64,000 nt of DNA, taken from assembly GCA_905178155.1 (NCBI GenBank), contig CAJINV010000002.1, positions 12,285,621 to 12,349,620 of the forward strand. The letters are read 5' to 3'. Both the position numbers and the translations under genes were made by a program. Each line of letters starts with the position of its first letter. Position 1 is the first letter of the stretch. The notes beneath the pieces are model-generated. The model did not search any database. It saw only the letters and a program-made list of their open reading frames with translations, and was not told the origin of the DNA. Shown in pieces: positions 1-60,619 of the stretch. Origin of the DNA: Amoebophrya sp. A120 (lineage: Eukaryota; Protista; Dinoflagellata).

Positions 1-119
1 TAGGAGACCTTCTCAAAACCTGTCATGCTAGGGCGTGCATGGTATACCTTCTGGATCATGCCAAAGCTGCATCACAAACCTCTGCATTTTTCCAGACCCA
101 GACATTTTTACACTTGATA
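1..119. mobile_element. Introner family A, partial (right end only)
   Basis: Ends in ttccagacccagacatttttacacttgata, the family A TIR. Internal sequence matches the end of the 49848-50109 copy. Confidence 0.9.
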
Positions 120-3100
120 CGACGAGGCCGGCGGCAGTGGTTGCGCAGAAGACGCAGATGCCCCGGAGCCACTACCACTCGCTGCTGCTTGCGCAAATGG
201 TGCACTGCTCGACGAGGAAGAACTCGAAAGCGTTCCTTGTCCTTGCTGCAGCGCGCTGTTGCTGTTCACGAGCAGGTGAGCAGGTGTTGCAGAGTGCACT
301 ACGGTTCCTGCAGATGATATCATGCCACCGACAACCCCAGCTCCACCATCGTCAAAGGTAGACCCCGCCACACTGGTGCCTGTTGAGGATCGACCACTTG
401 GAACCATTCCTCCGCCGAGCGTTGCCGATTGGTGGGAAACAGACGCCGGTATGGCGGGAAAATTCACGTTACTTGCTGACGAGCTCACACCTCCCAATGG
501 CCCTCCACCGACCGTGGTGTTCACCGTCGTGCGAATGCCCTGAGAGGCGAGCGCTGGCGCAGCAAACGGGTCGACCGAATGCCGCAAAGCCATGCTCTGG
601 AGAGGACCGCCACTGGTAGTGATTTATTTTTCTTTTTGTGAATATCAATTTTTTTGAAAATTTATCACAGATCACAGATACATTCGTTGCTGGAGTAGTG
701 AACTCTTGTGGTACCGTGCGGTTGCCAGCGATGCTCGTATCATGGCGTCCTCTGCGTCACGCGTGGATCTTCGCAGTGGCTCCGATTGAACCATAAATGA
801 AGCGGAGTTATCGAGGACCGTGCTGCCCAAGTTGTCTCCACCCCCATGCTCCATGACCCCGTCGAGCATTGTAGCGGAACCCCCTGCGAGGGGTCCCCCG
901 CCAACTCCCCCCGGTTGCCCCGCCCCGGGTCCTCGCTGCGGCAAGCCGAGTCCGAGTTGCTGCTGGTGCATGGTATTCAACACCTCGGGTTCGGGTGTGG
1001 GGGCAATCTGGTGAAACTGTGAAATTCGGTACACGATCTGATTGTACGCGTCTGGATATTTTTTCTTGACAATGTTGTTCAACGCGTCCGCGGTCAACTT
1101 CTCGGCAACCGTGTAGGTCTGTGCGCGGACGTACGCCGTCCGCTTCTGCCCCTTCTGGACCAGCGCAGTCTCGCCAAAGTAATCACCTAGGTTTGTTCGT
1201 TCATGACTTGTTTTTCTGCTCACTGGTGGCGGGTTGGACAATCCTTCTGTATCGGTCCATACACACATTTCAAGTTAGGTTTATTGTAGGTTCTGTTTCA
1301 TATATTGTGCGTCGTGCGCAGCTGTGGCGGGAAAAATAGGTGTACGTGTATCTATAAACAGGGAATACTACACCACGCAAGTTCGTGCGATAAACATCGT
1401 ACGGTGGAGACAAGGAGTAACTTCTACTCTAACACCAACTCTTGGAAGGAATATTTTTAGCACAAGACCACGACCAGAAGCACCTTCTCTTTTCTGTGCG
1501 ACGACGAGCTTATTTCGTGCGGTGGGAATGCCATTGGGTCCCGGCATGGAGTTTCGCCGGATGACGACGACGTCACAGAGACCGCGCAGAATGAAGTACA
1601 TTTCGAAGCCCTCCTGCCCGAACCGAATGATGTAGTCCCCCGGGGAAAACACCTCCTCGGCAAAGTTGTCGAGAATTTCAGCGACTCCGGCGGGGTGCAA
1701 GTCGCGAAAAAAGGGCGCTTTTTCAATCAGCGAGGCGAAGAGGCAAATCTTGATTTCCAGCACCAGTGCCTTCGAACTCGTGTTGTAGAGCAGATCGCAG
1801 GCCTGTTTGTCGTGCTGGACCTCTAGAAACTGGTGGTACATATTGATCCGCTATCAAATGTAAAAATGTCTGAGTCTGGAAGATTGCCAGGTTTGTCATG
1901 CACATTTTGCATGACTCCTGATGTCTATGATGCATGCCCTAGCGTCACAGATTTTCTGAAGGCTTCCTAATGCCTATTCCGCATGACAAATGCTCTTTCC
2001 GTGTTGCAAAACTTGGACTCTCTTTGCTGCTCATGCAATACAGATTTTTTTAGAATCCAAAATCAGCATGACAAGTTAGATTCTTCCAGACCCAGACATT
2101 TTTACAGTTGATATCCGCTTGTGGAGATTGGGCGGAAGCTTAATCTGCGTATGGGGCTCTCAAACGTTACATTCTCAACTGTTACATGATTTGTCATGCA
2201 AAAACGCTATCACTTTTCATAATTTCAAACCTTCTCCGCATGACAAGTTCTCGACGCGCTAGATAGCATTGTAATCTGCTCCAAACCTGTAACGCAAAAG
2301 GAGCAAGCTTTTCCCTTTCACTTTTGCCATTCTTGCATTACAAATTTCATGTAACAGTTGAGAATGTAACAGTTGAGAGCTCCATACTGCGTCATGGCCG
2401 CGTTGATCGCTGCCTGTTGCTCCAAAGTTTTACCTCAAGTCAATTTAAAATATGTTAGCTATGGCTGTGTATTGCGTGACGTGGACGTGAGCCCGAAAAC
2501 GAAATCGCCTTTTTGCACATAAATTTGCATACTCATCAAGATGAATAAGAATACAAGACGAACCCTGGTGCACCAGGAGGTCCATGACTGAAAACAGCAA
2601 CGCAAGATCATGTACGCTGTACTTTTTAAAATCATCATCCGCTGCTCGATGAGCACGATGCGTGCGAAAATGACGGCTTCGGCGAAAGCTCCGATGGGCC
2701 GGAGCATGGTGATGCAAAGAACCACGCTGCTGTCGTCTCGATCTGTCATAGAAGTTGGAGGGGAAGCCGAGAACAGGAGTACTGCATCGCGCAGGGCCAG
2801 AATGTAGAACCTGTAGTTTTTATTATGGAGGAACTGAAGCTGCAACTAAGCTGATACACTGATAGCGATTGATAAAAAAGATAAAACCCTGTTCTGCTTT
2901 TTCGCACGCCCGATGTAGAGGATGAGCGATGAGAATGGCGTGGAGGACGAGGCTAGTACTAACAACATCTTCACAAGACGAGTTGCATTTCCAATGCGCC
3001 AGGCAATCAAGTAAGTACTGTCTGGTGCACCTCCTAATGATCCTGATTTAACCACGATTCACACATACTGAAATCAGGCTCAAGCACAGCCAGGTAAACA

Positions 3101-5728
3101 AGAACGACGAGTCAATACTTCCAGACGGATATGTGTTTGACATCCGCTTCGTAGGTGGTTTCCTGATCTGTGTCATAGAGGACGTAAAACCAGGCGACGG
3201 CAAACAGGTGCACAAGCAGAAACATCATGAAGACGAGCTCTGCGCCGGCCCACACGCCCTGGCGGTAGGGGCTGATGACGACCCCGCCCTGACTGGCGGC
3301 CGCGCGGTCCCGCCGCACCGTTTCGTACCGCAAAAGCCGTAGCAAACCAAACCAACTACAGGCAGTCCTGGTTGTCGTAAATTTGATGTTGAATCAAAGG
3401 AGCGGTTTAAAAGTCACTCTTGGGACGAAGTAGTCGTCGTATCTACAGGCCGACTCTGCAACGAAAACTGGAACAAGGGGAAGGGCAACATGTCAGGACC
3501 AACGAGCATAATTTTTCTTCAGGTTCAGTGTAATGGAGGTCCCAGCCCAACTCGTACTACGAATAGCACCTCCACCAGGCAACAGCATTTGTCTCTGCCT
3601 CACCTTTTTCCGGACTGGCTCATGGCATCCACCCAGAGGAGGTTTCCTAGTAGAGTCAGCCAGTTGGCCCAGTACGCCGTTTTGCGGAACAAAATGCGGC
3701 GGATGTCCGCTGGCTCCACGTATTCCCGGCCCTCCTGAATCTCCACGATGCTGGTCCGCAGGGGAAAGAGCAACTCGAAGATCACGAAGGCAAACTCGGC
3801 CACCATGTCGAACACGAAGACTTCTAAAAGGTTGTCCGACCATTTCTTGGTCTTGTCCCCCGCTAACGGGTAGAAAAACCCGAGGTAGAAGGTGGTAAAA
3901 ATCGCGTTGTACAGCATCAGAATGGAGCACAGCTTCCGGCCGAACAGCAGCAAGTCGGAGTGCCCCGCGCGCCAAAACACGGACAAATGCGTGGGCAGCT
4001 TGCCGTACAGCTGCGTGGCAGTGGGGTTCACGCTGTCGGTGTCGGTGTCGCGAATCTCAAACTGGTCGAAGGAAAACCGGCTGAACTCCACCACCGCGCC
4101 GAGGTCTATCGTCGTGCTGGCCCGGGCGTGGTGGCCAGTGGAGAGCGACATGCGGCGGCCGATCGCCGCGCGCGCGCCCGAGCCCCCGCCGGGCCCGCTG
4201 CCGTGGTGAGCGCCCGTGAGCTGGTTGATCCGGCCCATGCTGCCCGGGAACATGGAGATGGAGAAGCTGCGCTTCCGCCCGAGCGTGGGCGGCGCGGTAT
4301 GTATCTTGCCAACCGTCACATTTCCGTCCACTGGTATTGCAATCAAAAACGCCCCCACCCCCGAACGTGGAAGCATTTGTATTGCAAACCTTTCAAAGTG
4401 AAACACTCGCCCTTTTGCATCTCTCAGCATCACAGATTCCCGATCGTGAATAGCAAAAATTTGCATTGCAAAAGATCCCTCCAGCAAAAGCGGCGCTTGT
4501 CATGCAAGCGATGCGATACTTACACGCCTAGACTCTGCATCAGAAAGGTTCGCACTCCTTTCATGCATGACAAAAAGTTTTTATTTGGAAACTTCGCATC
4601 ACAAATTTTTGCAACTTTGCGGGTGGTGGCATTTTTCCTCGCGATAACTGGCGGGAACTGATCGTCCTCCTCCCCGGTTCCGTCCGTACTGGCCGTTTCG
4701 TGCGACACGATGCTCATCTTTCTGGACCTGTCGCCGCCGAAGGGCTCGGACTTGCTCGGGTCCACCCCGGTTTGCATTTGCTTCCCATTCAGCTGCTTGC
4801 TCATCGCGTTGCTCGCCCGTTTTTTCACCTGCCGCTTGCTGCAGTGGTGCAGGTCTGCGGAGGCCATCAGAAAATCCTCGGAGGAACTGCTGGTATTCGT
4901 CCGCGCGTCTTTCCGCGGGTCCTCAGCACTTGAGCTCGACGCCGCGCTTGTGTGCTGTGTGTGGTCCACCTGCTGTGCGGAGGAGCTACCACCGGCCTCG
5001 TCAGGATCGGTCTTTTTCTTGATGGTGATGCCCCCCTTCGAGGAAGATCTCGTTGATATTGCCTGACCAGCCGCTCCGCCCGCGGCGGCGTGACGCACTG
5101 AAGGTTCCACAGCCTCTTTTTCCATTTCGTTGTCAAAATCCTGCAACAAAGTCCTCCGGCCTTTCGTGTTGCTACTTTTATCTTCATGGTCGCGCGGATC
5201 TTTTCTGTGTCCGCCGGCACTCCCCGCTGGTAAAAACGGTGTTGCGTAGGAACAGCTTGCCTCGAGTCCCAAGTGCTTGTCAACTCCTGCGCCTTTTCCG
5301 ACTGCACGGGCTAATGTCGTACTAGCTGTACTCGCGCTGAAAGGTGTAACGGTCGCTGGACCAGGTGCATTTGCTCTACCTGCTGGTGCTCGATCTACTT
5401 CATCGGCGTTTGGATTTAAAAATCCTGTTTGTGTTTCCAGCCCGGTCGTGTTGTAATTCGAGCTGTTTGTTGCATTTCCATACTTGCGTGCTTCCTCGAC
5501 GACGACGCGGCCCGCTGGTCCTCGCGCTCCGGTTCCGACCCTACCGCCGGGTTGACGCTCTTCAATATCGTCCGCGCCCGCCTGGTGACGGAGCGGTGCA
5601 TGGGGAGATTGAAACCCACTGTCGGCATAATCATCTTCCGTCAGCGACACCTGGTCATCGTGTAGTACCTGGCCCCGTGGGGTTTCCCTTTTCTCGTTCT
5701 CGCCAACCCTCGTCTCGTCCCCGACCAT
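120..5728 (-). CDS. Cyclic-nucleotide-binding 6TM cation channel (CNG/HCN/EAG-like), multi-exon, 3' end outside the window
   Basis: Spliced exons give TM helices, S4-like WFGLLRLLR, C-linker TQIKLPPNLHKRINMYHQFL (only after introner removal) and a cNMP-binding domain (APFF...FSPGDYIIRFGQEGFEMYFILRG...GDYFGETAL...RTAYVRA). It has GT-AG introns plus 4 introners. Start codon is tentative. Confidence 0.85.
1852..2113. mobile_element. Introner family A (262 bp), non-canonical intron in the channel gene
   Basis: TIR tatcaaatgtaaaaatgtctgagtctggaag / cttccagacccagacatttttacagttgata. Direct repeat tccgc at 1847-1851 and 2114-2118. Removal gives in-frame LHKRINMYHQF. Confidence 0.95.
2150..2386. mobile_element. 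Introner family B (237 bp)
   Basis: About 40-bp TIR tatggggctctcaaacgttacattctcaactgttacatga. Direct repeat ctgcg at 2145-2149 and 2387-2391. Removal gives AAINAAMTQIKLP. Confidence 0.95.
4335..4646. mobile_element. Introner family G (312 bp), diverged TIR
   Basis: tattgcaatcaaaaacgcccccaccc versus reverse complement of the right end tatcgcgaggaaaaatgccaccaccc. Direct repeat actgg at 4330-4334 and 4647-4651. Removal joins ORFs 4520-5740 and 3600-4487 in frame (QFPPVDGNV). Confidence 0.88.
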
Positions 5729-7196: not shown

Positions 7197-9725
7197 CTAC
7201 CTAGAGCCAGAAGTGACTGTTGATGAAAGGTTCGCTTTCACTCGGTTGCGCAACTGCAGCTCCTCCGCCAACTCACGCAGCTGCCTCTCCCGGTCGTTTC
7301 GCGTGCCTAGCATCGACTCTGTGTGTCCGGGGACGGGCCCCGCACGGTAAATCAGATCAAAACCGCCGACCCGGGTGATCTGATCGTGGTAGTCCAGCGC
7401 GTTGCCATTTTCGTCTACCTGCGCCAAGTACTTCTCCAGATCCAGAATAGTCAGCACGTCGTCCAGTGTGGCGAACTTCATTTCGTAGTCCGCCTTCGTG
7501 TTGGCGGTCAAGGACGGGCTGGCGTTCACCTCAATCAAGGTGGGGTTAAAGTGCGAATCGATCATGATATCGTAGCCGTACATTTCGAAGCACTTGCGGT
7601 CTGCAATCATCACCCGCTGCACGGCCAGCAGACTGTAGATGATGATTTCCTCGAAACGATTGAAGAGGTCGATGGTGCGCTCACGGCCGATTTTGGAGAT
7701 CAAGTACTGCTTCATCCGCGGGATTTCCCACTTGCCGCCGGTGCGCTGGTAGGTGTTGTCCTTGGAGAAGAGGTTTTTCTGCACCGCCACGTTGGTCAGG
7801 TGCGAGGACAGCTTGGTCGGGTCCCGCACTGTGTCGACCGAGTATCGGGTCAGGGAAAACCGCGCGAACCCTTCTCGACTCAGCCACACGGTGAGCGGCT
7901 GGTAGGAGGTTACTAGTGCATAGATGCGCAAGTCAAACTTCCGCCCGCCGATCAGCAGCGGATTCTCGATGTACTTTTGCACGATGTAGGATTCCGCCGG
8001 CCCCTCGTCGGGGTCGAAATCGTTGCCACCCGCGCCCGCGCCGCCGTAGCCGCCATCGCCCCCGCCGCCGGCGCCGCCCCCGGTCGCGGGCTTCCAGTTC
8101 GCCAACTGGCTCAGCTTGGTGACCATGAAGATGCCAGTGCCCTGACTCCGGCCGACGGGCTTCATAATCCACACCTGCTTCCCGCACCGCCGAAACTCTT
8201 CGACGAACATGCTGTATTCCTGAGGCAGGAGAAACGTGATGGGTATCATCTCCTCGTACTTTCGGGCCGTTTCCAGTGACTGCGCGCTACCTTCCTTTTC
8301 CAACGCACGCTTGTGCCGCTTCACGTTCTTTGCTAAGAGGTCCTTGCGGGTCAGCTCGTAGTGGTTGCGAAAATGGTTCACGCGCTGCCAGGGCTCCAGG
8401 TGCAGCTTTTCCAGCTCCCCGTGAATCCAGTCCTTGTCTGCCCAGTGGATGTGCCAATCCTGCTTCAAGTGCTTCGTGCTCACCGCGCTGGTACCCGCAG
8501 GAGCAGCCACTGCACCTCCGCCAGCACTCGCGGATGTTGACGTGCCTGTCGCTCCTGTAACCGCAGAGCCACCACCGCTGGCAGTACTCGCAGGACCTCC
8601 CAGCTGTCTGGCACTTCCGGGCGGAGACGTCGTCGGGGGTGTGCTCGAAGAAGCAAGGAAAGAAATCGGTTGACCGCCCATACCAGATGCGCCGCTAGTA
8701 CCAGGTCGCGCAGATACAGATGAACCTCCTCCCTTCGTTGCGGCAGTAGGTGTTGTACCCGTTGTACTGCAGCTGGTGGCAACTACCCCCGGAATGCTGT
8801 CATTAGTCGTTGACGCAGACGCACCGGCACCAGATCCTATAGCAACGCCCCCAGAAGTGGACATTGTGGTTGTTGACGAAGCCGATTGCCCCGCTCTCCC
8901 GGTTGCACTCCCGCGGCGAGCGACGTTTGAACTCGACGCAGCAGCACCACCTCCTCCCGTTCCTCCGCCTTCCGTGCCGGCCGCGGCCGACGCAGACGAA
9001 ATCACGGACGCGCCGCTATCCTGAGTAAAAACGTACCCACACCAGAGTCAAGATGGGGAATCGGCTAGACAAATCCACAAGTTTTGGCTGTTTTGCATGA
9101 CAAATTTGGATTCGTAGTGTAGTGCTGTTTGAGCTAGCTCAGCAGCATGACAGATCTAGCATATCATGCTGATTGGAGCATGACAAATTGCAAAACACGA
9201 CTAGAAAACGCTTCTCATGGGGCTCCGCATGAGAAACATTTTCAGCATGCAGATTTGCATGACAACTATGGTGTGGGTACGTTTTTACTCAGGATAACCG
9301 CTGCGCGGGGTCCGCGGCGACGGCAGGTCATCGACGCCCCATTCCTTCCACCCCCGGCTCTTGAAAACGTCATTATGGAGAGAAAAAAGTTTGTCACAGT
9401 CATGTCACTAAGTTGCAGATTTTGCATTACAAATTTTTTTAGCATCACAGCTTCTCCTTGTATAATTGCAGAAACACTAGGGAAATCCCTTATGAAGTGT
9501 GGCTGTGATGCATTTTTACGCATGACAGACAATTTTGTATTGCAAAAACGCCCATTAGTGATCGTGACGAACTTTTTTCTTTTGATAGTCATAGATGGTG
9601 TTGTAGTGCGAGCTTCCCTCCCCCGTAACCGCGTCCGTGACGCGATGCAACTTGGCGCAACGAAATTTGATCTGTTGCCACGGCGCCGGATCCCGTTTAA
9701 TGATGCGGCGAAAATGCTCGGACAT
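7197..9725 (-). CDS. TTLL9: Tubulin polyglutamylase TTLL9-like (TTL family), 3 exons split by two introners
   Basis: Motifs IKFR...NTIYDVFKSRGW (restored by introner removal), HFRNHYELTRK, WIMKPVGRSQG, KFDLRIY, HLTNVAVQK, FEMYGYD and EVNASPS. Confidence 0.85.
9017..9296. mobile_element. Introner family C (280 bp)
   Basis: TIR tatcctgagtaaaaacgtacccacacca / tggtgtgggtacgtttttactcaggata. Flanks gccgc and accgc (4/5 match). Removal gives PRTPRSGASVIS. Confidence 0.93.
9374..9587. mobile_element. Introner family D (214 bp)
   Basis: TIR tatggagagaaaaaagtttgtcac / gtgacgaacttttttcttttgata. Direct repeat gtcat at 9369-9373 and 9588-9592. Removal gives NTIYDVFKSRGW. Confidence 0.92.
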
Positions 9726-13300: not shown

Positions 13301-16300
13301 TCGCGTTCACTGCTCCTGCTGCAGCCGTGGCGGAGGTTGTGCGACCGGGCGCATCAAACTTCACATTCTTGTTTCTCGTCTGGTGTGATAATTTGGCACT
13401 TGCTCCTCCTGTTGTGCTCTTACCACCACTACCACCAGCAGCACCGCCCGCGCCTGTACTTGACGGCACCCCGCCGGTAGAAGCAGTTGGAGGCACTTTC
13501 TTCCGCACGGATGAAGAAGGAACTGCTGGCGCTAAGCTGCTTCCAACGGCCATGCCTGGTTGTTGTTTCAGCGGCCGGCCGCTCGCTGCTGATCCTCCTG
13601 TGGCCGCGCCAGTGTTGGATCCGTAGGAGCCCGTACGGCTGCGGCCACGAGAGGATGCGCGCGCGCCTGCCACGTTTAGCGAAGTTCCTGGCTGAGCTTT
13701 TCTCACAAGCGCGGCGCGCGGTCTAGCGGTCGCGGCAGAACTCGTAGTGGTGCTGATACTATTTTGAAAGTTTGCCGACTTGACGGTCTCCAGAATATGT
13801 GGGGACTTTGTGCGTTTCAGCGTGCTGCCCTGCTGACGGTCGGGCAGCGCCTGCGGTTCTCCATGCCGCGTGACCTGCTCACCCGGATGATAACCCGCTG
13901 AGGATGATGAGGACCTCGTAGCTCCTTCCCCCGCACTCGTGCTGCTCGTCGCAGTGGATGAACCTTGCTGCATCGTGAGCTGCGGCTGGGGATGCACCGG
14001 ATTCACCCGTGCTTGGAAGGAAGATGCTGCTTCGGCAACAGCTGCTGGCGCTACCTCATCGAGCGGAAGTGCGACAGGAACGGTAGTCGACACGAAGCTG
14101 GGCTTGGTCGGTTCGGCGGGCTCTGTACCTGTCATGACCGCCAGTCTTTGTCGCAGCGCCAGCGCTTTCTGCTGCACCGAAGAAGTGAGCGGCCTGTAGT
14201 TGCTTTGGATTTTCGGACTGTAAGTGATTCGCAGCACAGGACTGCCCTCGTCGGGACTGGGTTTCGACAGTGTGGAACCCCCTCCAGCAGGTTGTGCTGA
14301 ACTGCCGACATCGTCACTCTCCTGGTCCTGGCTTGCCAGACCATGCTGAAGAACCCCAGCCGCGGTGGTCGCAGTCGTGTGTCCTTGTGGAGCTCCTGCA
14401 AGCAGAACGGATGACACTTGCGATGCTGCGGACGACGACGCGGGCCGCTGTAACGCAGCGGCAGCAGCAATGCTATGACTTTTGTCTGGGGTTGCGAAAG
14501 TGACGTTTGGAGGAAAATCATGGCACTGCGTTGTACCCTCGGTATACGCCCCACGTCCAACGGCCTGTTCTGAACCCAAGGAAGATCCACTGGGGTAGAG
14601 GTGCACGGCACTCTTGTCGTTTCCACTTACCTGAGTAGCCTGCACGCTGCCAGGTGTATAGGCTGCTTTTGTCATGTCGTCACGACCGGCGCAGGATGTG
14701 CTCGTGCTAGCCTGTAGAAAGATCGAAGTACTTTCTTAATTGCGATCGTGTTTTTCTTATGCCGCTCAATATCTTCGCAATCGCATCAGAGTCAGACTCA
14801 AAGTGAAGCTGCATGCGAATCAAATAAAATTTTTCTTTTTGTTCCTGCCACTGCGGGGAGTAAGCGTATCTTGTAGAAGATGAAGAACATAACATCCGTG
14901 TCATTTTCGTATTTCTATAAAAAAGCGTTATCTTACCTGTGCGAGCGGGGCTATATTCAGTGACGGCGCAGGACCCGCTCCCGCAGCGGTCTGCGACCCC
15001 TCCTGGTGTTGAGCAACGCGGGGCTGTGTCGCCATGACAGTTCGTGTCGGCGATTGCGCTCGTGGATGCATCAGCGCTGCTGACTGCATGCTTCGAAAGT
15101 GCAGGCCGGGCGACGCGTTTGTTTGAAGAAAGCCTTTCTGCGGGGTTACTTGCAAACTCGCACTCGATGGCGTTCCGGACAAACCCTGGCTCAAAGCACG
15201 GATTTGCGCGCCGCCACTGGCTGAAGTTGAGGTTGACGGGTGCTGACCGCCTCCCGCGATTGTTGGCCCGCCTGAACCCAGTGACACTTGGGCTCCAGCA
15301 ACCGCAAGCCCCGCCTGCAGCGTCCTCTGCTGCGCTTGCGCACTGTTCGGGGGAACATCGGTCGTGGGTAAAGCACCAGTCGAGGGCGCAGCGGATAAGC
15401 TTCCGTACTGTTTGTTTTGCGGGCTGAAGCCCAAGCGTGTGAGACTGGATGACCGAGAGGAGTGTTGAAATGGTGTTCCGCCGAAGAGTTGCACTCCCCG
15501 GAGGACGGGCCTCGGGGAGAGCTTCGGCGTGTGCGCAAGTGACGTGGGCGCTAGTTGACCGGCCGCGCGGTGTAGTTGTTGCCCGCTTGTAATTGTACTT
15601 TCCGGGGCAGCAAACGCAGCAGGCACAGATGACCCTGCAGCAGCAGAACATGCATCAGCAGAAGTTGTTCCGGTTGCTGGATGAACGGCCAATGTTGTTG
15701 TACTCGTGGCAGCACCCACGTTAGCTCCCGTATGCATTGCAAAAGCATCGTACTAGTATGAATCGCATCACAGATTTTTTCAATAACAAAAAAGCAATTT
15801 GTCATGCTAGTTCAGGTAGAAAGTTGGATTTGTCATGCATGACTGCAATTACTACGACTACGATACTTTTGCACAGGATATCCCGCCGCCCTGGACGATG
15901 ACGAAGACGATTCCGACGCCGAGAGGCTGGCTGAACTAGCAGCCCCTGTTGTAGCTCCACCTACTTCCGCAGATGCAGTTCCTGGTGTTCCGTTGCGCTG
16001 CTGTTCTTGCCGCTCCTCCTGCTTTTTAATCTGCTGCTGTGCGGCTCTGTGTGCTTTGCTGGAGAGACTGACAGGAGGTCTTGGCGGTACCGGTGCGGTC
16101 TTGACGCTCGAATTCGACGGCTGGTGCCCAGCACTTGATGACGGTAGTACTGGTGGTCTGTGCTGCTGTGCAGCCGTCGGGTGGTAGGTCGTCCGCGCCC
16201 CACCACGAGTCACCATCTGGAGGTTGCCGGAAGCCAAACCTCCTGGCTGCAACCCAACAAGCCCCCCGGAATGGCGATGGCCAACGGCAACTCCGCGGGT

Positions 16301-40215: not shown

Positions 40216-42860
40216 CTACAGAAAGGCGACCCCGAGCGCGCTAGACGATTCGGGAGAAGCGCCCTGTTGCTCGCTTCCAGCCAGCGGTTTTCCGAAGATG
40301 TCCAGGGATTCCTTCTGCAATTTCAAAACCGCGTTGGCTGCTTCTCGTGCTTGCTTGGCAAAAAGATCGGCTCGCTGGGTATACTCTTCCGCACGAGCAT
40401 ATGCTCTTCGCGCCTTTTCCAGGTCCATATCGGCACGATCGAGAATGAGCTTCGCTGGCCGCGGGTCGTCCAGGGGGTCGTACTCTGTTCATTTGTGCAA
40501 GAACAACGGTTTCAAACTCAAACGTAAGTATGAAGAGAGACACCACAGCACATCAAATTCAGCCCTTAGCAGCGCGTATCTTGTAGTTATGGTGTGCAAG
40601 TTTCAGGATACTGTGCAGACTATTTTTTGGCGGTGAATGACCAAAAGCGCGGGAAGTCGCGTAGCTAGTGTGACATTCAAAATCGCTCATAGGCAACATC
40701 CTTTCTCGTCATACTATCTTTCTGAAACAAGAAATAGCAATACTCTCTGCGCCAATGACTCCCATGACTCGCCCGTTTATCGGGTATTTTTTCCGCATGA
40801 AAATCCAATCTCGGTCCTCGGCCGTGATCGGATCCTTCTGCGCCGGGATGAAGATGTCCATGGGGTATTTGTCCACTTCCGTGATACGCAGCAAACCAAC
40901 GGCGGCCTTGATAAGCTGCATCATCAGCGTTGCCGCCGCGGGCGTGAGCTCGCTGAGGAACCACATAAAAAAGTCCCAGATCTCGCTGAAGGCCTTGAAC
41001 AGCATCTCCAGAAGTTGGAACGGGTTTGGGAGATTGTCGAGAAACACCTTCAGTATCTTAAAGGTGGCTTTTACCATGGCAATCAGCTTCGGGACCAGGG
41101 CCAACAGCTCGCCAATTTTCTTGATCACCACCTATCCCACAGAAAATCACCCTGCTCACCCAAAACTTGTATTATGATGCGAACAGGCGCTGGTGCAAAA
41201 AAAAATTCGGCTGCAGTACCTCATGCAAAGCAATGCAACGGAAGCGGAACGTCGCTTCCGCGCTACTACTTCACTTCTTTGCCCTGTTTGCAACATCACA
41301 ATATCCGTCTATCATCATGAAGGTGAAGGTGCAGACTTCACTGAGGATATTGCCTGTGCGGTTTTGATACAGGAGCCGACCAGTTTAAAGAACTGGGTTA
41401 TCGATAGGTCGTATGTCATCGCGGGCTTCGTGCCCAACATCAGTTTCCAGGGCTGGTAGATGAACGGCCGCACGTTCTCGAGCTTGGAAAGCTCCGCGGG
41501 TTTCAGGATGTGATGGTCGAAACGTGGTCCCGTTGGGTCAAAAATGGACTTCAGGTTCTTGATCTGGTCCAAAAAGTTCGAGGTGTCGGTCAGCATCCCG
41601 CTCCCGGCGCCCGCCAGGCCGCTCAAGGAATCGGCACCACCGTGTATGCCGTTCGTGATCGCGCTGCCCATGTCCACGCCCAGCGACTCGCCCGCGACCA
41701 TCCCCACGGTGGACGCAGACGCCCCGCCCGTCGCCCCGGCAGCGTATCAACTGTAAAAATGTCTGGGTCTGGAAGAATTCATGTTTGTCATGCTTGTCTG
41801 GCATGACTCTTAACTCTGTCATGCACGTTACCCAAGAGCTCCGTTTTTCTGTGATGCAGAGGCGCAGTTTGTCATGCAGAATAGGCAACACCTAGAAGCT
41901 CAGAAACTTGTCATGCTGAGCCAGCATTTGTAGCCTCATCATGAGACGCCACCCAGCATCACAAGTTCCCAGACCCAGACATTTTTACTTTTGATACAGC
42001 GAGAGTGAAGCCGACGAGGGGGGCCAGGTTCTTCGCACCCCCCTATCGAAAGGAAAAATCCCCCCTCCCCATATCAAACCGGAAATTTGTGATGCTGATT
42101 TGTGACCACAAATCAGCTTTGTCTTGCAGTATAGGAGTGCAGGCAGATACAAAGCCTGGAAGGGGCTGGCTAGAGGTGGGCGCCCAGCATGGCAGACGTC
42201 TGCCCTGTTGGTGCAGCAGCATGACAAATCGCCTGCGCAAAGCGGCGAAAGCTCTGGCTTTGCTCTCTTGCAAGACAAACCTGATTTGTGACCACAAATC
42301 AGCAACACAAATTTTCAAAAGGATGCCTTTTCGATATGGGGAGGGGGGATTTTTCCTTTTGATACCCCCGCAGCGTCCTTCATCGGCAGTTGCTTCTGTA
42401 AGGCCTGGCCGGCTTGCTGCAGCGGGGCGGGCAGGGCGGCCATCACGTCCGGACCAAAGCCGTCTTCCATCACGGAGGGCGGCGAAACGGAAAAATTTTG
42501 CGGCTTCAGCAAAGACATCGGGTCAAAGCCTTTGAAAAAGTCCATGGCCTCACTCAGCACAAAACTCGTCGTGGAGAGTCGCTGTGGTCGTTGCCTGGTG
42601 GTGGTTATTCTACCCGCAAGAGGTGGGGCCGGAAAAGAGGAGGACGAACTCGAGCTCGACGGGCATTGTCGTGTGGCATGACGAACACTTGTCGCACGCT
42701 TGTGCGAAATTGATGGGGTCGTGGGAGAGGAAAAGAAGCTCGAGAACAACGATGTCGCAGACGAGCCACCGTCGTCGCAGCTGGTTGTATCCTCGCCGTA
42801 CAAATGATCTGGAACGCCACTACCGCCTGGCCCCGAGATCAGAAACCGCGAGAGCACCAT
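40216..42860 (-). CDS. Hypothetical protein with amphipathic/hydrophobic helices, multi-exon
   Basis: ORFs 42315-42860, micro-exon 41997-42043 and 41315-41707 join in frame after removing two introners. Further ORFs at 40709-41131 and 40216-40428 are probably downstream exons. Confidence 0.6.
41745..41996. mobile_element. Introner family A variant (252 bp)
   Basis: Family A TIR. Direct repeat cagcg at 41740-41744 and 41997-42001. In-frame removal gives FTLAAGATGG. Confidence 0.94.
42044..42364. mobile_element. Introner family E (321 bp)
   Basis: About 35-bp TIR tatcgaaaggaaaaatcccccctccccatatc. Direct repeat ccccc. In-frame removal gives KDAAGGAKNL. Confidence 0.93.
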
Positions 42861-45374: not shown

Positions 45375-48300
45375 TTAGGATTGGAAGTACTGGTAGTCGA
45401 GGATGAAGCTCCAGAACTTGTAGTTTCCGGTGGGTAGGGGCTGAAAGACCGGGATTTCAACCAACCCGAAGCGGGTTTTCATCGCATCCACACCGTCCGT
45501 GCCCAGAGCGACGAAGGCCGTTCCGGCTCCGTAGATGATCTGAATGGCAGCGATGACCAGCAGGACCCAGTGAAAGATGCGTTCGCCAAGCGATCGCTCC
45601 GTCTTGTAGACGACGGCGTAAGCGAGGAGCGGGTAGGGAACCTTCACATTTATGTATTTTTACGGTAAACTCGTGTCTAGTATGGGCGGTATCGACAACA
45701 AGTTCCATCTGTAGAACTATTTTCATATTGATCAAGCTGCAATCCAATGGCGAGTACATCACACAATTATTATGAAGAACTGCGAGTCACCTGCCCAATA
45801 TGCAACCAAACCTAGCACGAACTTCGCGAAAAGTTAGAAGAGTACCTAGCTCTGATTCGCTATTTTTGGTCCTATGTAGTAAACGCAAAAACTCAGAAAA
45901 AGTACCTGAGTCAAAACACAGCCGAATGCCGCGACGAGATCGACGAGCTGGCCGAAAAAGGGAACGACCCACACGATCAGGGCGGCCATCCAGATGATTA
46001 GGGTACGGCAGACCTTCGATTTTCCCGGGGGCACGTCCTCCACGGTTTTTACCTTTGCGAACTTCATTTCCAGGTGCAGCAGCGTGCTGTTCATGATCAG
46101 GGCGAAGGAAATGAACACGTTAACCACGATCATCAGTGCGACCGTGATCCCCTGCCAGGAGGCGGCGTTTCTGTGGTTCGCCGGGTTCACAAAGTCGTGT
46201 CGCATGGAGTCTACGATACTGCTGTCAATCGCGGAGCCGTAGGTGAGGTAGCCGCAGATGCCGACCACGAAGTAGATGAACGCAATGGTGAAGGAGGACA
46301 TGAGGATGGAGCTGACAATGGTGCTGGGTTCGACCATGCTGGTGTACAGCGCGGGGATCATCATGACGAAGGTGAAACTGAAGAACACTTTGTTGACGGG
46401 GGCGACGATCCAGGACAGACTGGCGATGGTGGAGGACCAGCCAGAAATATTTTCGGTTCGCGAAGCGGGGAAAACCAGTTGGTTGGTGATCGGGAGATCC
46501 AGGAGAATTCCGTCCGCACTCTCGTTGACGACGCCCGCGGTCGTTGACGCGCTCGAGAAGTATGCGGGATACTGTTGTCGCCAGCTTGCTGTGTCATCCG
46601 CGGTGTAGGCCTCCGCGCACAGAACCTTTCTCGGCTTTTGGGTGGCTTGTGACTTGCTGTCGAGGTCCGGAACGATGTAGGTGAAGTGCAGTGTTTCGAA
46701 CGGTGCGGTCGTGGCGTCGGACTTGTATTCCAGCGTGCATCGGTTGTTGGCGCGGTCGACCCCGATGGCGGTCGGACCTGGAACGATGTCCTGCGGCAGC
46801 CGTTTTGCCGCGCTGCTCATGATCTGCAGCGCGTCCCGCTTGCCGTTCGCCGTGGACAGTGCGCGTTCCCGGGTCACCTCCTGCCAGGACAGGGTGTCGC
46901 GCTCGTCCGCCGACAGGGAGTCGTGAAAGTGTCGCAGCTTCTCCGTCAGGCCGGCCACCTTGATCGTCAGCAGCTCCACGTCAGCGGGCAATGCGTCAGC
47001 CCTGCTCGCGGCGGCGCACAACTCCTGATATTTGGCGCGGTCAGATTCCGCCTTCTTCCGGTCCTCATCACTGACAGTGGTTGTGTCGGTGTTTTTCGGG
47101 AGGGCGGGGTACCGCCAGTAATACAACGCGTAGTTGTCCATGCGCGTCAGCCAGCACCCATCAACGCCCTCCTGCGCCGCGCACACGAGCTCATTTTCTG
47201 GCGTTGCCGGATTGAGGCAGGCCTGCTCGATCTCCTTCAGCAGGGTGTAATCCGCGGCGACGGTGCCGTCTGGCCGCGTGTACTGGTAGGAAAGCTTGTT
47301 GCGCACAAATTCGGGCGGGGAAACCTCCTGACTTAAGTCCAGCGCACTCACGACTGGCAGCTTCTGCTTGGTGTCTGAAACTGCCACACGTTGCATGCGC
47401 CACTCGACCGGGCGGTCTTGCATAATCAGGTAGGAATTAAACTCGTTGCCGTTCGCTTTCGCGTTCCTCTCGCAGAAGTCCGCGTCCACGTCCAGCGTTT
47501 CGGGGATCGCGCCTGTAGTAGAGGTCAAAATAAAGTTGTGCGATGCTTGACCTTGCTCCTAACTGCAAAAGCCGTTTTATATATAAACCATCTTTACTAG
47601 AGAGCGAGAAACACAAACCAAAGTCGAAATTCGACAACTACAAAGTAGAAATACAGAAACTCCTCGACAACAAGAACAACAGAAAAATAATCGCTTGAAT
47701 ACTTCCATCCGTCGGCTTCTGAACGGCGACGCGTAAATATTCAAGAAAACCCTGCCACTCCGTTCTTCCGCTGTCCGCTTTTCGTGAGGTGTACCAGCTA
47801 AATTCACAGGCCTTCTCGCCATTCGTCTCAAAGTAGTAGGAGTCTCGCTCGTCCGGAAATGTGTCCCAGCGGAAAACCTCGCCGGCAATCCCGGTGCCAG
47901 AGAGCTCCACGACGGCGTCCTTCAGCAGGGTTATCCTTCTCGCCGACACGCTGGGCATGGTTATGGCGTTCTCAAACGTTACATTCTCAACTGTTACATG
48001 AATTTGTCGTGCAAAACTACCTTGAGCCGGTAGATGATCAAGCTGCTTCGCATGACAAATCTCCGAAGGGCTAAACAGCACCTAAATCGGTGCCAAATCT
48101 GTGATGCGAAAGCAGCAATTTTTGCACCTTTGACTGTTGCGGCTCTTGCATCGCAAATTCATATAACAGTTGAGAATGTAACGTTTGAGAACGCCATAAT
48201 GGTGTCGGGCGGGTTCTGCGTCAAGTCCCGGTGATACCACTGTCCGGAAATCCAGGCGACTGGGGTGTAAAACGCGGCCTCCGTGGCGGGGAATTTGTGC

Positions 48301-50575
48301 TCCTCTACGACGGTGCCATCCGCGTTACCGCCGGTCGAAAACGCCAAGGTCGCTTCGCCCCGCACGCCCTTTCCGGTGTCGCTCATTTTCACCAGTTCCA
48401 CCTTTCCGCTGTCCGTGAGCAGGCAGCTTTGGCCGTATTCACAGCTTCGGTAGGGGGCCCACTTCGGGAAGTCGAGGTACTCGTTGTTCACGTCGAAGGG
48501 CTGGGCTTTCATGTCCAGGACAAATTTCCCGCCCGCGGGCTGGTTTGCATCCTGGCTTACGGTTTGCAGTTTCCTGCCACTACTGATGTCCGGGTTCTCG
48601 CTGACGCCACGCGCACTGTCGGTACCCACCTCAGTGAGGCCCGTTCGTCCAAAGTAGTCGTTCACCTCGCCTTGCTGCGGACCAGCGAACAGCTTCAACA
48701 AGGAAGCAGACTCGGTGTAGGCAGGACCGTTGAAAGCGACCACTGTGAAAAGGAGTTAGTGTTTGGTGTATATTTATTTTTCCGGCAAATGCTAAACATG
48801 TCTTGTCTATAAGCAGCAAGGTCTCAGAACGCAGGAGAATCTGAATCAGGAACAGGAAGAGAGCGTGATTATTGAAAGTGAAAGTATACCGTACGTAAGC
48901 AAAATCATATTTTCGTGGCACAAAAGAAAACAATACTGGCATCATCTCCGGTCTTAGCTGGATTCAGGATGGAGTTGAGCGCAACCACCAAAATGACCAC
49001 GATGCAGCTGAGCCATGCTACAAAGGACACCCGCGCGAGCACGGACACGTCCCTCAACCAGCACAGGAAGGTAAGAATCAGGGCCACCGTCACAATCCAA
49101 CCGTTCTTCGTCAGAGCCGGAATGTAGTCGAACAGAATCACGAAGTTCATGGCCAGCAGCAGCATGAACACCGTTCCGACCAGAATAATGAAGGTATGGT
49201 AGAACTTGGAGTAGACTGTGATGCAAATTTATTTCGTAACATTTTATGAATTTATGTGTTTGAGGAAAAGCATAGCTGTACTTGTAGTACAACAATATCG
49301 GTACAAAAATGTATGAGCCTCAGCGTCCTTGCAGTAGTCAAAGTCAAATTTCGAACGTGAATGGAGATGAAAATCATAAAAGTTCAGTACCAGCCGCCCA
49401 GCACTTTCCGAACAGGACCTTTGTTAAAGATCCCATCTGCGACATATCCTCTTGATCGACATTCAGGTCTTCAATACGCTGCATCACTTGTGCCTTTTTT
49501 ATTGCCGCCACGATGGATGCAGCAGTGCAGCTGTCATATTTTTTCATTTGCATTTTATCAAGTTACTGATGTAATTTGATCGGCATTTGCAAAACGTTCA
49601 ACATCATTAAGTTTCTGCTGAAGATGGACATCACGAGGCCACGCAAAGACGAAGACTTTCTTGTTAGAGCGCTCCGAGGTGAAGCAGTAGGTGCAAAAAA
49701 ACATGTTCAAGTTCATCATCAAAAGAAAAAGATTTGCAGTTCCAGCACTGCAGCAAAAGTTGCAAATACAAGGCCAGGATGAAGATCGCTGGGACGTAAC
49801 CCGTGGACTGGAAAACGCTTGGAAGGGTAACGATACCGGCCCCGATGTATCAAATGTAAAAATGTCTGGGTCTGGAAGAATGCAACTTGTGATGCTGCGT
49901 TTCGATGACTAAAAAATTTGTGTTGCATGAGCAGCAAACAGAGTCTAATTTTTACTACGCGGAGAGGGCATTTGTCATGCGGAATGGGCATCAAGAATCC
50001 CTCAAAAAACCTGTGATGCTAGGGCATGCATTACAGGCATCATGGGTCATGAGAAATATGCATGACAAGTGTTGCATTCTTCCAGACCCAGACATTTTTA
50101 CATTTGATACGATGGCCGTTGTGACGATGGAAAAGATGGACTCCCACCAGGTCGTAGTCCTTCCGAATCCCGCGCCTGGGTCGGAAAGGGACCCCCTTGA
50201 TATCATATGCAAAAATGTCTGGGTCTGGAAGAATGCAACTTGTCATGCTATATCTGAAGCATGCAAAAATCTGTGTTGCATGATTACCAAAAGTCGTCCA
50301 GTTTTGGACAAGTCGGGAGGGAGTTTCTCATGCAGGATAGGCATGAGAGAGATCGCACAGAATCTGTCATGCTAGGTCCTGCATTCCAGGCTTCATGGGT
50401 CATGGAAAAGCTGCATGACAAATCGCGCATTCTTCCAGACCCAGACACTTTTACATTTGATACTTGACCTTGAGGAACCATCGCTGTCGCTCTCCGCATG
50501 GGACTGCAGAATGCTTTTGTGGCTTTTATACGAAATCCGGCTCAGCCCCGAGGGCGGGATCAGCGGTGCCGTTTC
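45375..50575 (-). CDS. Amino acid/auxin permease (Aa_trans, SLC36/38-like) with a large loop insertion; first exon not located
   Basis: TM1 motif SIFSIVTTAIGAGIVTLP (restored by introner removal), LCWLRDVSVLARVS, FSFTFVMMIP...M..P, VGICGYLTYG and VPFFGQLVDLVAAF. N-terminal ETAPLI fits an acidic dileucine sorting motif. Confidence 0.85.
47962..48198. mobile_element. Introner family B (237 bp)
   Basis: 45-bp TIR with 1 mismatch (tatggcgttctcaaacgttacattctcaactgtta[c/t]atgaatttg). Direct repeat atggt. In-frame removal gives PPDTMPSVS. Confidence 0.96.
49848..50109. mobile_element. Introner family A (262 bp)
   Basis: TIR tatcaaatgtaaaaatgtctgggtctggaagaatgcaac. Direct repeat cgatg. Splits the TAIGAG motif. 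Confidence 0.96.
50201..50462. mobile_element. Introner family A (262 bp)
   Basis: Family A TIR. Direct repeat cttga at 50196-50200 and 50463-50467. In-frame removal gives GSSRSRGSLS. Confidence 0.95.
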
Positions 50576-56207: not shown

Positions 56208-56243
56208 CATACCATGCGGTCCGACGTCGGACCGCATGGTATG
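56208..56243. repeat. Perfect 36-bp palindrome (related copy at 53502-53529)
   Basis: cataccatgcggtccgac|gtcggaccgcatggtatg. Confidence 0.95.
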
Positions 56244-57698
56244 CTGCCTCTTTGCTTCTCTCGTTCAAGCAGGCGAAGCAGAATAGACGGGCAACCGAAA
56301 TAGACAGGTGGCGCCACCACAGCGCGCCACAGACCCACATCACGCGCCGGCCATCGGGGTGGCCCCCCGACCGCAGGCCCTTGACACTTCTGCCACCGCT
56401 AGCGAGACGAGCGGAGGAGCCGCCTCTGCCCGTTGGTTGCAAAAGGGGGGCGCCTTTGGCGCACGCTTCGGCCGCGTCGCGTAACCGCGGAAAGGCGGGC
56501 AGGAAACAGACGGCCGGGGCGCGACGGCCTCTATTTTGTAAGAATGGGCAAGCGGCGGGCCAGAATGTAGGGGGCCGAAGGTACGTCGGACAGCGCGCGG
56601 CCGGCGTGCCATCCAAGACACCGCGGCGGGGCGGCGCGCCCATTCGGGCCCTGGCAGTGGCAGCCAGTGCCATTGCTTATTTAAAAGGCGCTCAGGGCGA
56701 AGAGGGCCGACGCGCCCCGGCATTTCCGAAGCGCGAGGCGGCGATCAACATCCGGGCGAATACTGAAAGGCCAAAGGCCAGCGCCCGCGCACCACTTCAA
56801 AAGGTGCACAAAATGCGCACAGGGCCCCACAGCGCTCGCGAATAATCGCGAACAACCGACCACGGAGGCGCTGCCCGTCCGATGCGCGGCGGGTGGCATT
56901 TCCCGCAGCCTGCTTGGAGGCGTCGATCAAAATGGCAGGCAGCTGGCGGGCACACGCCGCGGCGAAGAGGTGCCGCCCTTTCATGCTCTGCCACTCCCAA
57001 AGTGCGGACTTACCAGCAAAAGGCAGCACGGTCCAAACAATTGTCGCAAAGCATGGATTGCCGACGATCAAAATAGCGACTTTGCCAAAAGTCAAAGTAA
57101 AAGTTTTGGAAAAGTCGCTATCCCGTTTCAATTACCCGTTTTCCCTTGTAAAAGCTTGTTGCCTGTAATACTTCACCTCCCTCCAGTAGCAGCGTCTGAA
57201 GTCTTTACTTGTACTGGGCAATACCAGACAAGAACAAATGGGCAAATTTTGATTACGACCACTGTAGCTTCACACTGGTCGACGCGAAGTCATTGCAAGC
57301 GCTCGTCCTCTCCTGAACCAGCCTAATCAACTTGCACCTCCTTTCTTTCAGATGATCATGATTCAAATCCAGTAGTGCGTCGTTTAAATCGCGCTAATTC
57401 AAAGATACAAGCGCACGGCACGCGTTTGAAGCATCATGAACAACAACTTCAATTTCAATTGCTGTCACCGTCGTGCGGCATTAATGATGGGCGTTTCAGG
57501 CGAAAATGCGACAGGGCGAGTCATTGTCTCCTTACCCGTAGTTTAGTCGGTTTTTTTTTCCGCTTTGCGCCTGTCGTGCACTGGAATTGCTCCCAGGAAC
57601 TCTGACTCTGTAGGGATCGCCCCAGGTAGCGGAAAGAACAAACCAAACGAAACTTACAGTCAATCACAGGGATCACAGGAAAGCAGAAGCTTTTGAGT

Positions 57699-60619
57699 TC
57701 ATGTGTCTTTGTTATCCTGCTCCACCAATAGCGCCAGAATATCGTCCCATCTCTCGTCGTATCCGGCCTGTTGAAAGTGCGCGATGTACCGCGATCGGAT
57801 CAAGCGATCCACTGCTGCGGGCTGCTCCAGGACATCTTTGAAAACGCGTCTCTCGATGATCCGCATCACGTCGGCAAGGCACAGCGTGTTTCCGGTTAGC
57901 AGCTGCAAGGAGTCCAACACGCGGAGTATCCTGAGTAAAAACGTACCCACGCCCGAGTTGTAATGCAGATTTGCAAAGACAGGAAGACTTGTAATGCGCA
58001 TCCCCATGAGAGCCATTTCCAGTCGTGTTTTGGAATTTGTGATGCTGTGAACAGGATGAGCAGACGAATCTGTGATGCGGCTGCACTTGCTAACCTGCAC
58101 TACACTGCATAGTGCAACTTGTCATGCGTGACTCCCAAAACTCCTAGGTTTGTGTTGCAAAATCCCCATCTTGACTATGGGGTGGGGACGTTTTTATACA
58201 GGATACGGAGAATGTCCACGTGCGGCGTTACCGGCTTCGGACCTCTGCCTTGGGCTGGTCTTGCTATCCTGTGCAAAAGTATCGTAACGTACTCGTATGG
58301 AAATCATGCATTACAAAATCCTTTGTTAAGGTAAATCAGCATTACAAATTTTATTTCTCATGCTGAGGAAATTTGTAATGCATTTATACGAGTACGATAC
58401 TTTTGCAGTTCATACTTGCGCCCGCAACACCATGCGTTTTTGATCGCGAATCCACGACTCGTTGTCCCCCTCCTGGCGAGCTGCAAGAACCTGCAACACC
58501 CCCAGATGTGGATCCTGCGGAATTACTCTGGGATGAATGTTGCTTGATTGCATTGCACAAGATCCAACTCTGTCCGGAGACAGACAACAGTTCCTGCTTT
58601 CCACGGGCTGCAAATGCGTCAAACGTTTTCTGATACTTCTTGGACACAGAAGAGTCATTGGTCTGCCCAGCGTGAGCAGGGCTCTGCAGGCTTTCCTCAG
58701 TTGTAGTTTCGTTCCGACGGGAAGTGGTTGGAGACATGGAAGAACCGCAAGAAGCCCCCACGATCTCCTGACTGCGGGCCCTTTGCTCGCGTTCCGCAAG
58801 CTCCTGCGACATGCCGCGAGTGTACAACAGGGCCGTCGAGTTCAGGAGCTTTGCAAGCTCCGCCGCCGGGAAGTTGCTGTGTGGACTGTTGCTCCCGGCG
58901 CACTGACTATCCATCTCCTGCAGCACACGATTTGCGAACACCGCCAGGTCGTGCAACGGAAAAGCTATTTCCCATCGACTGAAGACAACCAAAACCGCCG
59001 TCAAGTCCTTCAGCTCGAACAGATGCAGCGAGCTCAGAGAGTACTTGCGAATCTTCGCGTATAGGGAGCGGAGGAGAGAAAGCTTCTGCTCTACCTTCGT
59101 GCTTGAAGTGGAAGGATTTTGTGCGTTGCAGCTGACCACTGCAACATGTTGACCAGTGTCTACAACTTTGCGAAGCCCGGTTTCGTCAACATTGCTCCTA
59201 GAAGTGCTGCCCGTCTGACTAATGTTGTCTGGACTAGGCGAGGAAGAGGTTGATGTCGTCTGCGCAGTGTTCGCGAGCATTTGCGTTTGCTCCAGTCTCT
59301 GCGCTACGGCCCGATAGTACTCCAGCAGCATGCCGAAGGCGTATGCTACCGTTGAGAGCTCAGCGGGGGTGTTGAACAGAAGTTTCTCGCCGGCGCTGCT
59401 TACGCAATACCGTACGAATTGTTCCTCGTCCATGCCGCACCGTGCGAACGAGTGGATCACGCGGGCAATTTCAAGTGGCGTTGCCTGTTTTAGGTTTTAG
59501 CGTGTACCAGAAGTAGTCGGCTCGAGTGACGAAGTTTTGGTTATGGTTCCCCTTCATCACTCCAATCGGAATATATTAAAAAAAAACCGTACTCTATACA
59601 ATTGCAAAGACGTATAGGAGTTGTATGTCGACAAAAGCAAAGCATCAAGCTTAAACTCGTGACGACCCAACAACATCACAAACGGGTTCGGCTGTTTTAC
59701 CTCGCCGATTGTGAACTTGGCGTGGTAGGCAATGCTCTCAAAGAGTCTCTTGTCCTGCACTACAGCGGCGTCCGCAAAAGCTTTCGCGATGACGGACAGG
59801 TCGCGGATGTGAAACGGCTCCACTTGCATGCGGGTTTGCAAATGCGTGGAAAGCCTTTTCCACAGTTCGTCGTCATTCAGTTCAAGCTTTGTAATTGCGT
59901 TAATGAACATGGTTTGCTCCGTGGTCTGTTGCAAGTCCGGCACCTGTGATGTTTTTTGTGTTGAGGGTTGATGCAGCAGCAGTGCAGGCAGTCTTGGCTG
60001 AGTCTCAATTTTGGCCACTACAAGTACCAACCAGCGTAGCTGGCCCACATAGGAAGCATAATCAACAGTGGGTCATATAATCAGTATGATCTTCTTCATG
60101 TTCTATTATACCCGTATTTTCAACTCCTTAACCATGACCAGCCGCTCGGATTCTGTCAGTTTCAGGCCGCATTTTCCGAACGCCGATAGCATCATGGCCA
60201 GATAGGTCGCATTGAAGTACGCGATCTTCTCGAAGAAGAGCTTGCGAATCTCGCCCTCGGGCCCGACAATCATCGGCAAATACCGTTTATCAAATGCAAA
60301 AATGTCTGGGTCTGGAAAAGTGTAAACTTGTCATGCAGGTTTTTCATGACCCATGAGGTCTGGAATGCGGGACCCAGCATGACAGAGTCTGCGAGGTCTC
60401 TGCCATGCCTATCCTGCATGAGAAACTCCCTCCAAACTTGGTCTAAAGTGGACAGCTTTTGGCACTCATGCAACACAGATTTCTGCATCGTTCGGATTTA
60501 GCATGACAAGTTGCAATCTTCCAGACCCAGACACTTTTGCAATCCATACCGTTGCCGAAGCGGAACCTGCCGCGAGGCGGACGACGAGGAAGATCCGCCT
60601 CCACCGCTCTGGGATTGTC
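57699..60619 (-). CDS. Helical-repeat protein (HPR/OPR/FASTK-like, probable organellar RNA binding); 5' exon(s) not located
   Basis: Repeats such as FNATYLAMMLSAFGKCG, FHIRDLSVIAKAFADA, TPLEIARVIHSFARCG, TPAELSTVAYAFG and FELKDLTAVLVVFSRW. Three introners are removed in frame. Confidence 0.65.
57927..58205. mobile_element. Introner family C (279 bp), inverted relative to the 9017 copy
   Basis: TIR tatcctgagtaaaaacgtaccc / gggacgtttttatacaggata. Direct repeat cggag. Removal gives VDILRVLDSL. Confidence 0.94.
58265..58414. mobile_element. Introner family F (150 bp), inverted relative to the 15731 copy
   Basis: tatcctgtgcaaaagtatcgta / tacgatacttttgcagttcata. Direct repeat cttgc. Removal gives VAGARPAQG. 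Confidence 0.92.
60288..60548. mobile_element. Introner family A (261 bp)
   Basis: Family A TIR. Direct repeat ccgtt at 60283-60287 and 60549-60553. Reverse-complement homolog of 50201-50462. Removal gives PLRQRYLPM. Confidence 0.94.

Follow-up and report, generated by a model that had tools for sequence, protein, structure and literature searches.

The short inserts that interrupt the genes of the window, the whole stretch of 64,000 nucleotides analysed here, are the published introners of Amoebophrya sp. A120, bounded by TAT…ATA terminal inverted repeats and a 5-bp target duplication. They occur with equal frequency in either orientation relative to the host strand and are missing, in both orientations, from RNA-like contigs. 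The reading that we prefer, with a probability of roughly 0.6, is insertion of a DNA transposon followed by hairpin-guided removal from the pre-mRNA. The question bears on the means by which Amoebophrya disposes of its tens of thousands of non-canonical introns.

A scan for TAT…ATA ends flanked by a 5-bp direct repeat recovered 14 complete elements of 150-321 bp in the window, in addition to a cut copy at 1-119 (Table 1). The flanking repeat is perfect in 13 of the 14, with one mismatch in the element at 9017, and the strict form of the rule gave 13 hits in the window versus none in 10 Markov controls. The terminal inverted repeats extend ungapped over 22-63 bp, and the arms follow a pattern of TAT (by construction of the scan), seven bases and at least three A, with A at positions 13 and 14 in 28 of 28 arms. 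A sub-terminal motif, GCAT(G/C/T)ACA, was found 57 times in the window, on both strands, with 50 occurrences falling within elements. Each element is predicted to fold 2.9-18.4 SD below its shuffles, into a hairpin of -44 to -169 kcal/mol lying between the direct repeats, with a terminal stem in which 7-15 of the 15 end bases are predicted to pair end to end. The interiors of 9017 and 42044 are partly self-complementary (40 and 62, compared to shuffle maxima of 23 and 22). Searches of Rfam and of viral contigs returned no matches, and no transposase was found in the analysis. Stops are present in all three sense frames in 11 of the 14 elements, and the remaining three have stops in two or three frames, or shift the frame; something must therefore remove these elements.

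Table 1. Introners and host gene features located in the window (orientations 1 and 2 refer to family A; X3-X6 are RNA-like runs)
Feature	Position	Strand	Remarks
Family A introner, cut by window start	1..119		Opposite to 1852; in cNMP-domain channel gene; P0001 runs past
Family A introner, orientation 1, repeat TCCGC	1852..2113		Removal gives P0001 junction peptide; A25 collinear
Family B introner, repeat CTGCG	2150..2386		End/repeat scan, alignment, P0001
Family D introner, repeat ACTGG	4335..4646		X3 joins 4329 to 4647 (317 = 312 + 5); DNA contigs bridge both ends
Family C introner, TTL-family gene	9017..9296		Repeat with one synonymous mismatch; scan and alignment
Family E introner, repeat GTCAT	9374..9587		End/repeat scan
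Family F introner, repeat TCCCG	15731..15880		X6 record 15 joins 15725 to 15881 (155 = 150 + 5)
Family A introner, orientation 2, repeat CAGCG	41745..41996		Joint 41739-41997 in X3, X4, X5, X6
Family G introner, repeat CCCCC	42044..42364		Joint 42038-42365 in X3, X4, X5, X6
Family B introner, orientation as 2150, repeat ATGGT	47962..48198		Joint 47956-48199 in X5, X6
Family A introner, orientation 2, repeat CGATG	49848..50109		Removal suggested by an X6 piece that begins exactly at 50110 (side 86)
Family A introner, orientation 2, repeat CTTGA	50201..50462		Joint 50195-50463 in X5, X6
Family C introner, opposite to 9017, repeat CGGAG	57927..58205		Joint 57921-58206 in X6
Family F introner, opposite to 15731, repeat CTTGC	58265..58414		Joint 58259-58415 in X6
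Family A introner, orientation 1, repeat CCGTT	60288..60548		Joint 60279-60546 (266 = 261 + 5) in X6
Host cNMP-domain channel gene, in-window part	120..4151	-	Match to P0001, Amoebophrya sp. A120
Open frame with last exon of host TTL-family gene	7197..9047	-	Pfam

The first-pass annotation had described 1-119, 49848 and 50201 as inverted relative to 1852 and 60288, and families C (9017/57927) and F (15731/58265) as inverted pairs. Pairwise alignment of interiors from which the terminal repeats were trimmed bears this out, and adds 41745, which that annotation had missed, to the first set. The same- and opposite-orientation scores were 19 and 182 for 1852 vs 49848, 25 and 207 for 50201 vs 60288, 14 and 52 for 1-119 vs 1852, and 25 and 101 for 9017 vs 57927 despite the self-complementary interior of 9017; the weakest pair, 15731 vs 58265, scored 21 and 37 (shuffle maximum 23). 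Orientation is thus meaningful, because the interiors are asymmetric and align in one direction only. Family A accordingly comprises one set with 1852 and 60288 and another with 1-119, 41745, 49848 and 50201, while 2150 and 47962 of family B form a same-orientation pair.

That the host genes all lie on the minus strand was likewise borne out: Pfam hits to TTL, cNMP, Aa_trans, sulfotransferase and methyltransferase domains are all on minus-strand frames (6 of 19 frames tested), and 11 of 11 ordinary introns derived from RNA contigs read GT…AG on this strand. The channel-gene exon is 100% identical to P0001, a protein of Amoebophrya sp. A120, which corresponds to the translation of the channel gene once each element and one repeat are taken out. 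P0001 crosses 2150 and 1852 and then continues for 187 residues beyond 1-119; the channel gene therefore carries both orientations, as had been claimed. The alignment with the A25 orthologue of the channel protein is free of gaps across the insertion sites, and this collinearity indicates that removal restores the ancestral protein. In P0002, the gene model of a relative, a TTL domain is fused with the channel, and the TTL-channel gene order of window positions 7200-120 is likely to be conserved.

Removal was followed in contigs assembled from four runs, X3-X6, which represent two samples from a single study; a program flags them tentatively as RNA, and they skip GT-AG introns. Among the joints listed for these runs, at least nine of the 14 complete copies (4335, 15731, 41745, 42044, 47962, 50201, 57927, 58265 and 60288) are skipped exactly, by the length of the element plus 5. 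Neither orientation remains unspliced, since the exact skips cover both orientations of family A (60288 vs 41745 and 50201) and of family F (15731 vs 58265); for family C, the joints listed include one orientation only (57927). Furthermore, the skips are mostly found in the same contigs that lose GT-AG introns. Indeed, the GT-AG intron at about 14712-14936 is missing, together with the introner at 15731, from X6 record 15. The introner at 50201 and the GT-AG intron 50576-50725 are skipped at equal depths, and the skip of 60288 in X6 has the same depth as two GT-AG skips.

The tally of orientation versus host strand was extended to metagenome contigs, in which a pattern scan located at least 146 loci (551 kb, overlapping) with 322 distinct elements; the control gave 1 hit in 500 kb of Markov sequence. 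The 77 loci listed all belong to one public assembly, the second assembly below, whose strain may differ from A120, and no long unique sequence is common to the window and any of the 146 loci. Host strand and full flanks were available for 258 copies, 244 of the 322 from the loci and 14 from the window. Strands were called with a coding model at 69 loci, in a per-locus version that was right for 11 of 11 window chunks (a partly circular check) and that replaced a noisy per-element model (9 of 14 correct); these remain model calls, with which an independent splice-word control agreed in only 41 of the 69 loci and disagreed in 25. The 246 stranded copies that could be placed in families represent 16 of these, and all 16 occur in both orientations at approximately 50:50 (A 52:50, F 16:18, C 8:11, G 7:12), with no departure from even at p < 0.05 and a lowest p of 0.08. 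Same-family pairs within loci, which require no strand call, comprise 41 in the same and 42 in opposite orientation, and near-identical pairs (at least 93%) comprise 8 and 11, respectively.

Of 232 intact elements, 209 are located within coding frames, versus 809 of 1500 random positions (54%), an excess which could reflect either selection for intact ends in exons or an insertion preference. Among the 233 exonic copies, the 5-bp repeat begins at codon position 3 in 104, at position 2 in 71 and at position 1 in 58, and this skew may derive from a mild preference for a C…G palindromic target. Elements of ~1 kb with the same ends were also observed (L015 505-1608, L073 6551-7698, L055 5001-6031 and L063 5001-5972), representing two families, each in both orientations; these are possible transposase remnants. 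The longer elements as a group (457-1148 bp) contain open frames of at most 238 aa.

The repeat length is 5 bp also in a repeat-blind scan, where 244 of 302 copies were perfect and 39 had one mismatch. Its sequence is nearly free, with G at position 5 in 76 of 233 copies and C at position 1 in 74, and 35 repeats have no G at all. A bias towards G before TAT, seen in the window (9 of 15), disappears in this larger set, where the G count is mirrored by that of C at position 1. Only 12 of the 233 copies would permit a GT-AG intron in any of six registers when the sense strand is read, and 9 when the antisense strand is read; for G(T/C/A)-AG the counts are 25 and 18, respectively. The two strands are alike in other respects: base counts match between the 5' and 3' arms, folding energies are equal (-94.8 vs -94.2 kcal/mol), and after correction no alignment column in six families differs between orientations. 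The equality of orientations, the lack of recruited GT/AG sites and the unbiased ends together narrow the signal to the symmetric ends and the 5-bp repeat, against both ordinary splice-site recognition and RNA-based spreading.

Mismatched repeats provide suggestive evidence as to the register of the cut. One-mismatch repeats are synonymous in 16 of 26 cases, versus 10-11 expected for a fixed cut with one copy free (p 0.01-0.05). The excess resides at the edge positions of the repeat (12 of 15) rather than in the middle (4 of 11), and a sliding cut predicts otherwise.

DNA transposition is supported by the combination of a fixed 5-bp duplication and random orientation. The latter also argues against reverse splicing of RNA, which would be expected to preserve orientation. 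In the reading that we prefer, a DNA transposase would have placed the inserts in exons in either orientation, generating the target duplication; in the transcript, the predicted stem of paired ends would bring the two copies of the repeat together, and both would be cut in the same register, so that the element and one repeat are lost. The suggestion that removal proceeds through the symmetric stem and the direct repeat therefore holds in part: both orientations are removed, and stem and repeat are the sole features that they have in common. A guiding role for the stem, however, we infer from the anatomy, because the arms lack the preference for G·U over A·C mismatches on the sense strand (157:160, and also 221:206) that would be expected of a selected RNA hairpin. 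Symmetric removal would explain how a transposon could flood exons at little cost, and natural copies in opposite orientation that are up to 97% identical constitute ready test pairs.

By analogy with euglenids, we favor a non-standard cut-and-join over ordinary splice-site recognition. The nonconventional introns of these protists (PMC12501133, PMC11282704), as far as the portions of these papers covered here describe them, share with the present elements the lack of GT-AG, terminal pairing, boundary repeats and a proposed MITE origin, and their excised RNA is reported to be circular. However, the Euglena signature, N3CDG…CH'GN5-6|R, is asymmetric with a purine after the 3' junction, whereas here the ends are TAT…ATA and the flanks are free, as judged by base counts. 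A bolder proposal, which we advance tentatively, is that these introners represent a splice-site-free and fully strand-symmetric class of intron, handled outside the spliceosome by an apparatus, either an RNA endonuclease with a ligase or a domesticated transposon protein, for which the paired transposon ends would be the only signal. If so, any insertion, whatever its sequence or direction, would be silent at once, and the cut might slide within the 5-bp repeat.

Comparison with other described elements places the symmetry in context. The A120 introners were reported by Farhat et al. 2021 (PMC7789003) with arms of TAT, seven bases and an A-run, direct repeats of 3-5 nt, a mean length of ~240 and RNA-supported removal, and the elements of the window resemble them in organism, arms, direct repeat, family structure and absence from transcripts. 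The sections of that report considered here argue against mobilization by a transposase, none having been found in A120, and give variable repeat lengths, whereas the fixed 5 bp and 50:50 orientation observed here point to DNA transposition; where orientation is mentioned in these sections or the supplement, it concerns genes rather than elements. In two further publications (PMC9860276, PMC12130899), again as far as covered, A120 families are mostly unknown TIR elements with many non-canonical sites, 'TIR DNA, unknown' being the usual label among 19 of the 58 A120 table rows of PMC12130899; no orientation tally appears in the portions covered. The introners of Polarella glacialis and Aureococcus (bioRxiv 10.1101/2020.10.14.339549) are DNA-transposon-like and act as introns in either orientation, but according to the portion of the preprint consulted they draw their GT/GC/GA and AG sites from the duplication or from one end of the element, and classes 6, 8 and 10 are biased to one orientation, whereas here no sites are recruited and no bias is seen. 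MITEs and other TIR transposons are similarly short and non-coding, with terminal inverted repeats, sub-terminal repeats, a fixed duplication and random orientation; unlike them, the present elements are removed from transcripts. The elements themselves are thus already known; what distinguishes them from other introners that act in two orientations is complete strand symmetry without recruited splice sites. Searches of the mainly open-access literature recovered no account of such symmetry in Amoebophrya.

The main rival is a relaxed, U1-less spliceosome, which would act on linear signals made available by the inverted repeats whichever way the element lies: an N|UAU(C/G) donor (like the host GUAU) or a UA-N acceptor, a U-run and a UGAC-like branch. 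In this regard, the earlier assertion, that neither a strand-specific branch point nor a polypyrimidine tract could be required, was overstated, since inverted repeats and sub-terminal motifs render the last ~50 bases nearly alike in both orientations. A U-run is present at -8 to -17 in 228 of 258 copies, and in family A the motif GCAU(G/C/U)ACA lies at -35 to -50 in 25 of 30 and 25 of 35 copies, depending on orientation. Canonical donors of the host read GTA(A/C/T), with GTAT in 5 of 11. The A120 spliceosome is nearly complete, with U2, U4, U5 and U6 reported and U1 missing, according to the sections of PMC7789003 covered here; a strain with canonical introns has U1. The sense 5' end of family A is also slightly more conserved (divergence 0.073 vs 0.086; 33 vs 49 copies), a weak signal and the only hint of asymmetry, which would suit a spliceosome. 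Against this, removal can be exact only if both ends are cut in the same register, which leaves at least one splice site arbitrary in sequence; several ordinary host introns end A-rich rather than pyrimidine-rich; the G count given above represents no enrichment at the would-be +1 position; a branch-like variant occurs 61 times at the sense 3' end and 72 times in the mirror position; departures from TAT are similar at the two ends (10 vs 7 of 195); and the stem would bury the signals. No strand-specific selection on the branch-like motif or the U-run was found among these copies. On balance, we regard a spliceosomal route as rather unlikely, if a serious contender.

Two further explanations dispense with RNA splicing altogether. 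Strong hairpins between direct repeats are a known setting for reverse-transcriptase jumps (PMC8240250, in the part covered), and all of the RNA evidence is cDNA; the skips could then be artefacts, with the cell bypassing the insert by polymerase skipping or by ribosome hopping, for which a 5-nt repeat would offer one full codon in any phase. The joined form, however, is the listed contig at a depth of 91-136 in three runs, and the stops described above require removal. Ribosome hopping is discarded, as take-off and landing codons must match and 7 of the 26 one-mismatch repeats alter the amino acid of the codon. We therefore consider the artefact explanation improbable. Excision at the DNA level, in the manner of ciliate IESs, had also been proposed; it would take place at some life stage or in one of the nuclear copies, and the TA-bounded ends, the single direct repeat left behind and the full strand symmetry would indeed suit a DNA reaction. 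Ciliate IESs are TA-bounded, transposon-derived sequences that are precisely removed from the DNA of the somatic nucleus, leaving one repeat. Here, by contrast, the DNA retains the elements: unitigs of the DNA-like run X1 pass from host sequence into elements at a single-copy depth of 43-45 (reaching at least 31 letters to either side of each end of 4335, and 23-29 letters at a further seven ends), and the second assembly also retains them, in coding frames. No element-free DNA joint was present among those listed for X1, the one DNA-like run, whose contigs drop rare variants, and the contigs that show the RNA-like skips have lost GT-AG introns as well. In one X3 contig, 4335 is absent but the GT-AG intron 3368-3603 is retained, as a DNA event might produce; since this contig has a break at the following exon boundary (3117) and then continues, it is read as partly spliced RNA. 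To our knowledge, no second nucleus is known in dinoflagellates. Excision from DNA is consequently the least probable of the explanations considered, and the proposal is not sustained. The retention of intron 3368-3603 where the upstream introner at 4335 is absent may reveal the order of removal.

Larger elements are also present in the window. A GC-rich element of 5.15 kb, at about 51999-57150, is bounded by terminal inverted repeats of 66 bp (TAC…GTA) with imperfect AAGCTT flanks, and a further inverted repeat, of 750 bp, is nested within it; two of its frames gave no Pfam hits, and RNA contigs of four runs provided no cover at 52518-57095. At 60564-60620, the X6 contig doubles back over 57 bases that differ slightly from those of the window, which may reflect a tandem-repeat allele or an assembly difference. 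Transposons of the hAT type have YA..TR ends and a duplication of 5-8 bp. A 1,834-bp element at 62096-63929, which on account of its ends and duplication we take to be hAT-like, has TAT…ATA ends, inverted repeats of ~59 bp and a perfect 8-bp duplication AAAGTAAT. It contains a 299-aa frame without a Pfam hit, and an internal 49-bp hairpin is located at 62959-63061.
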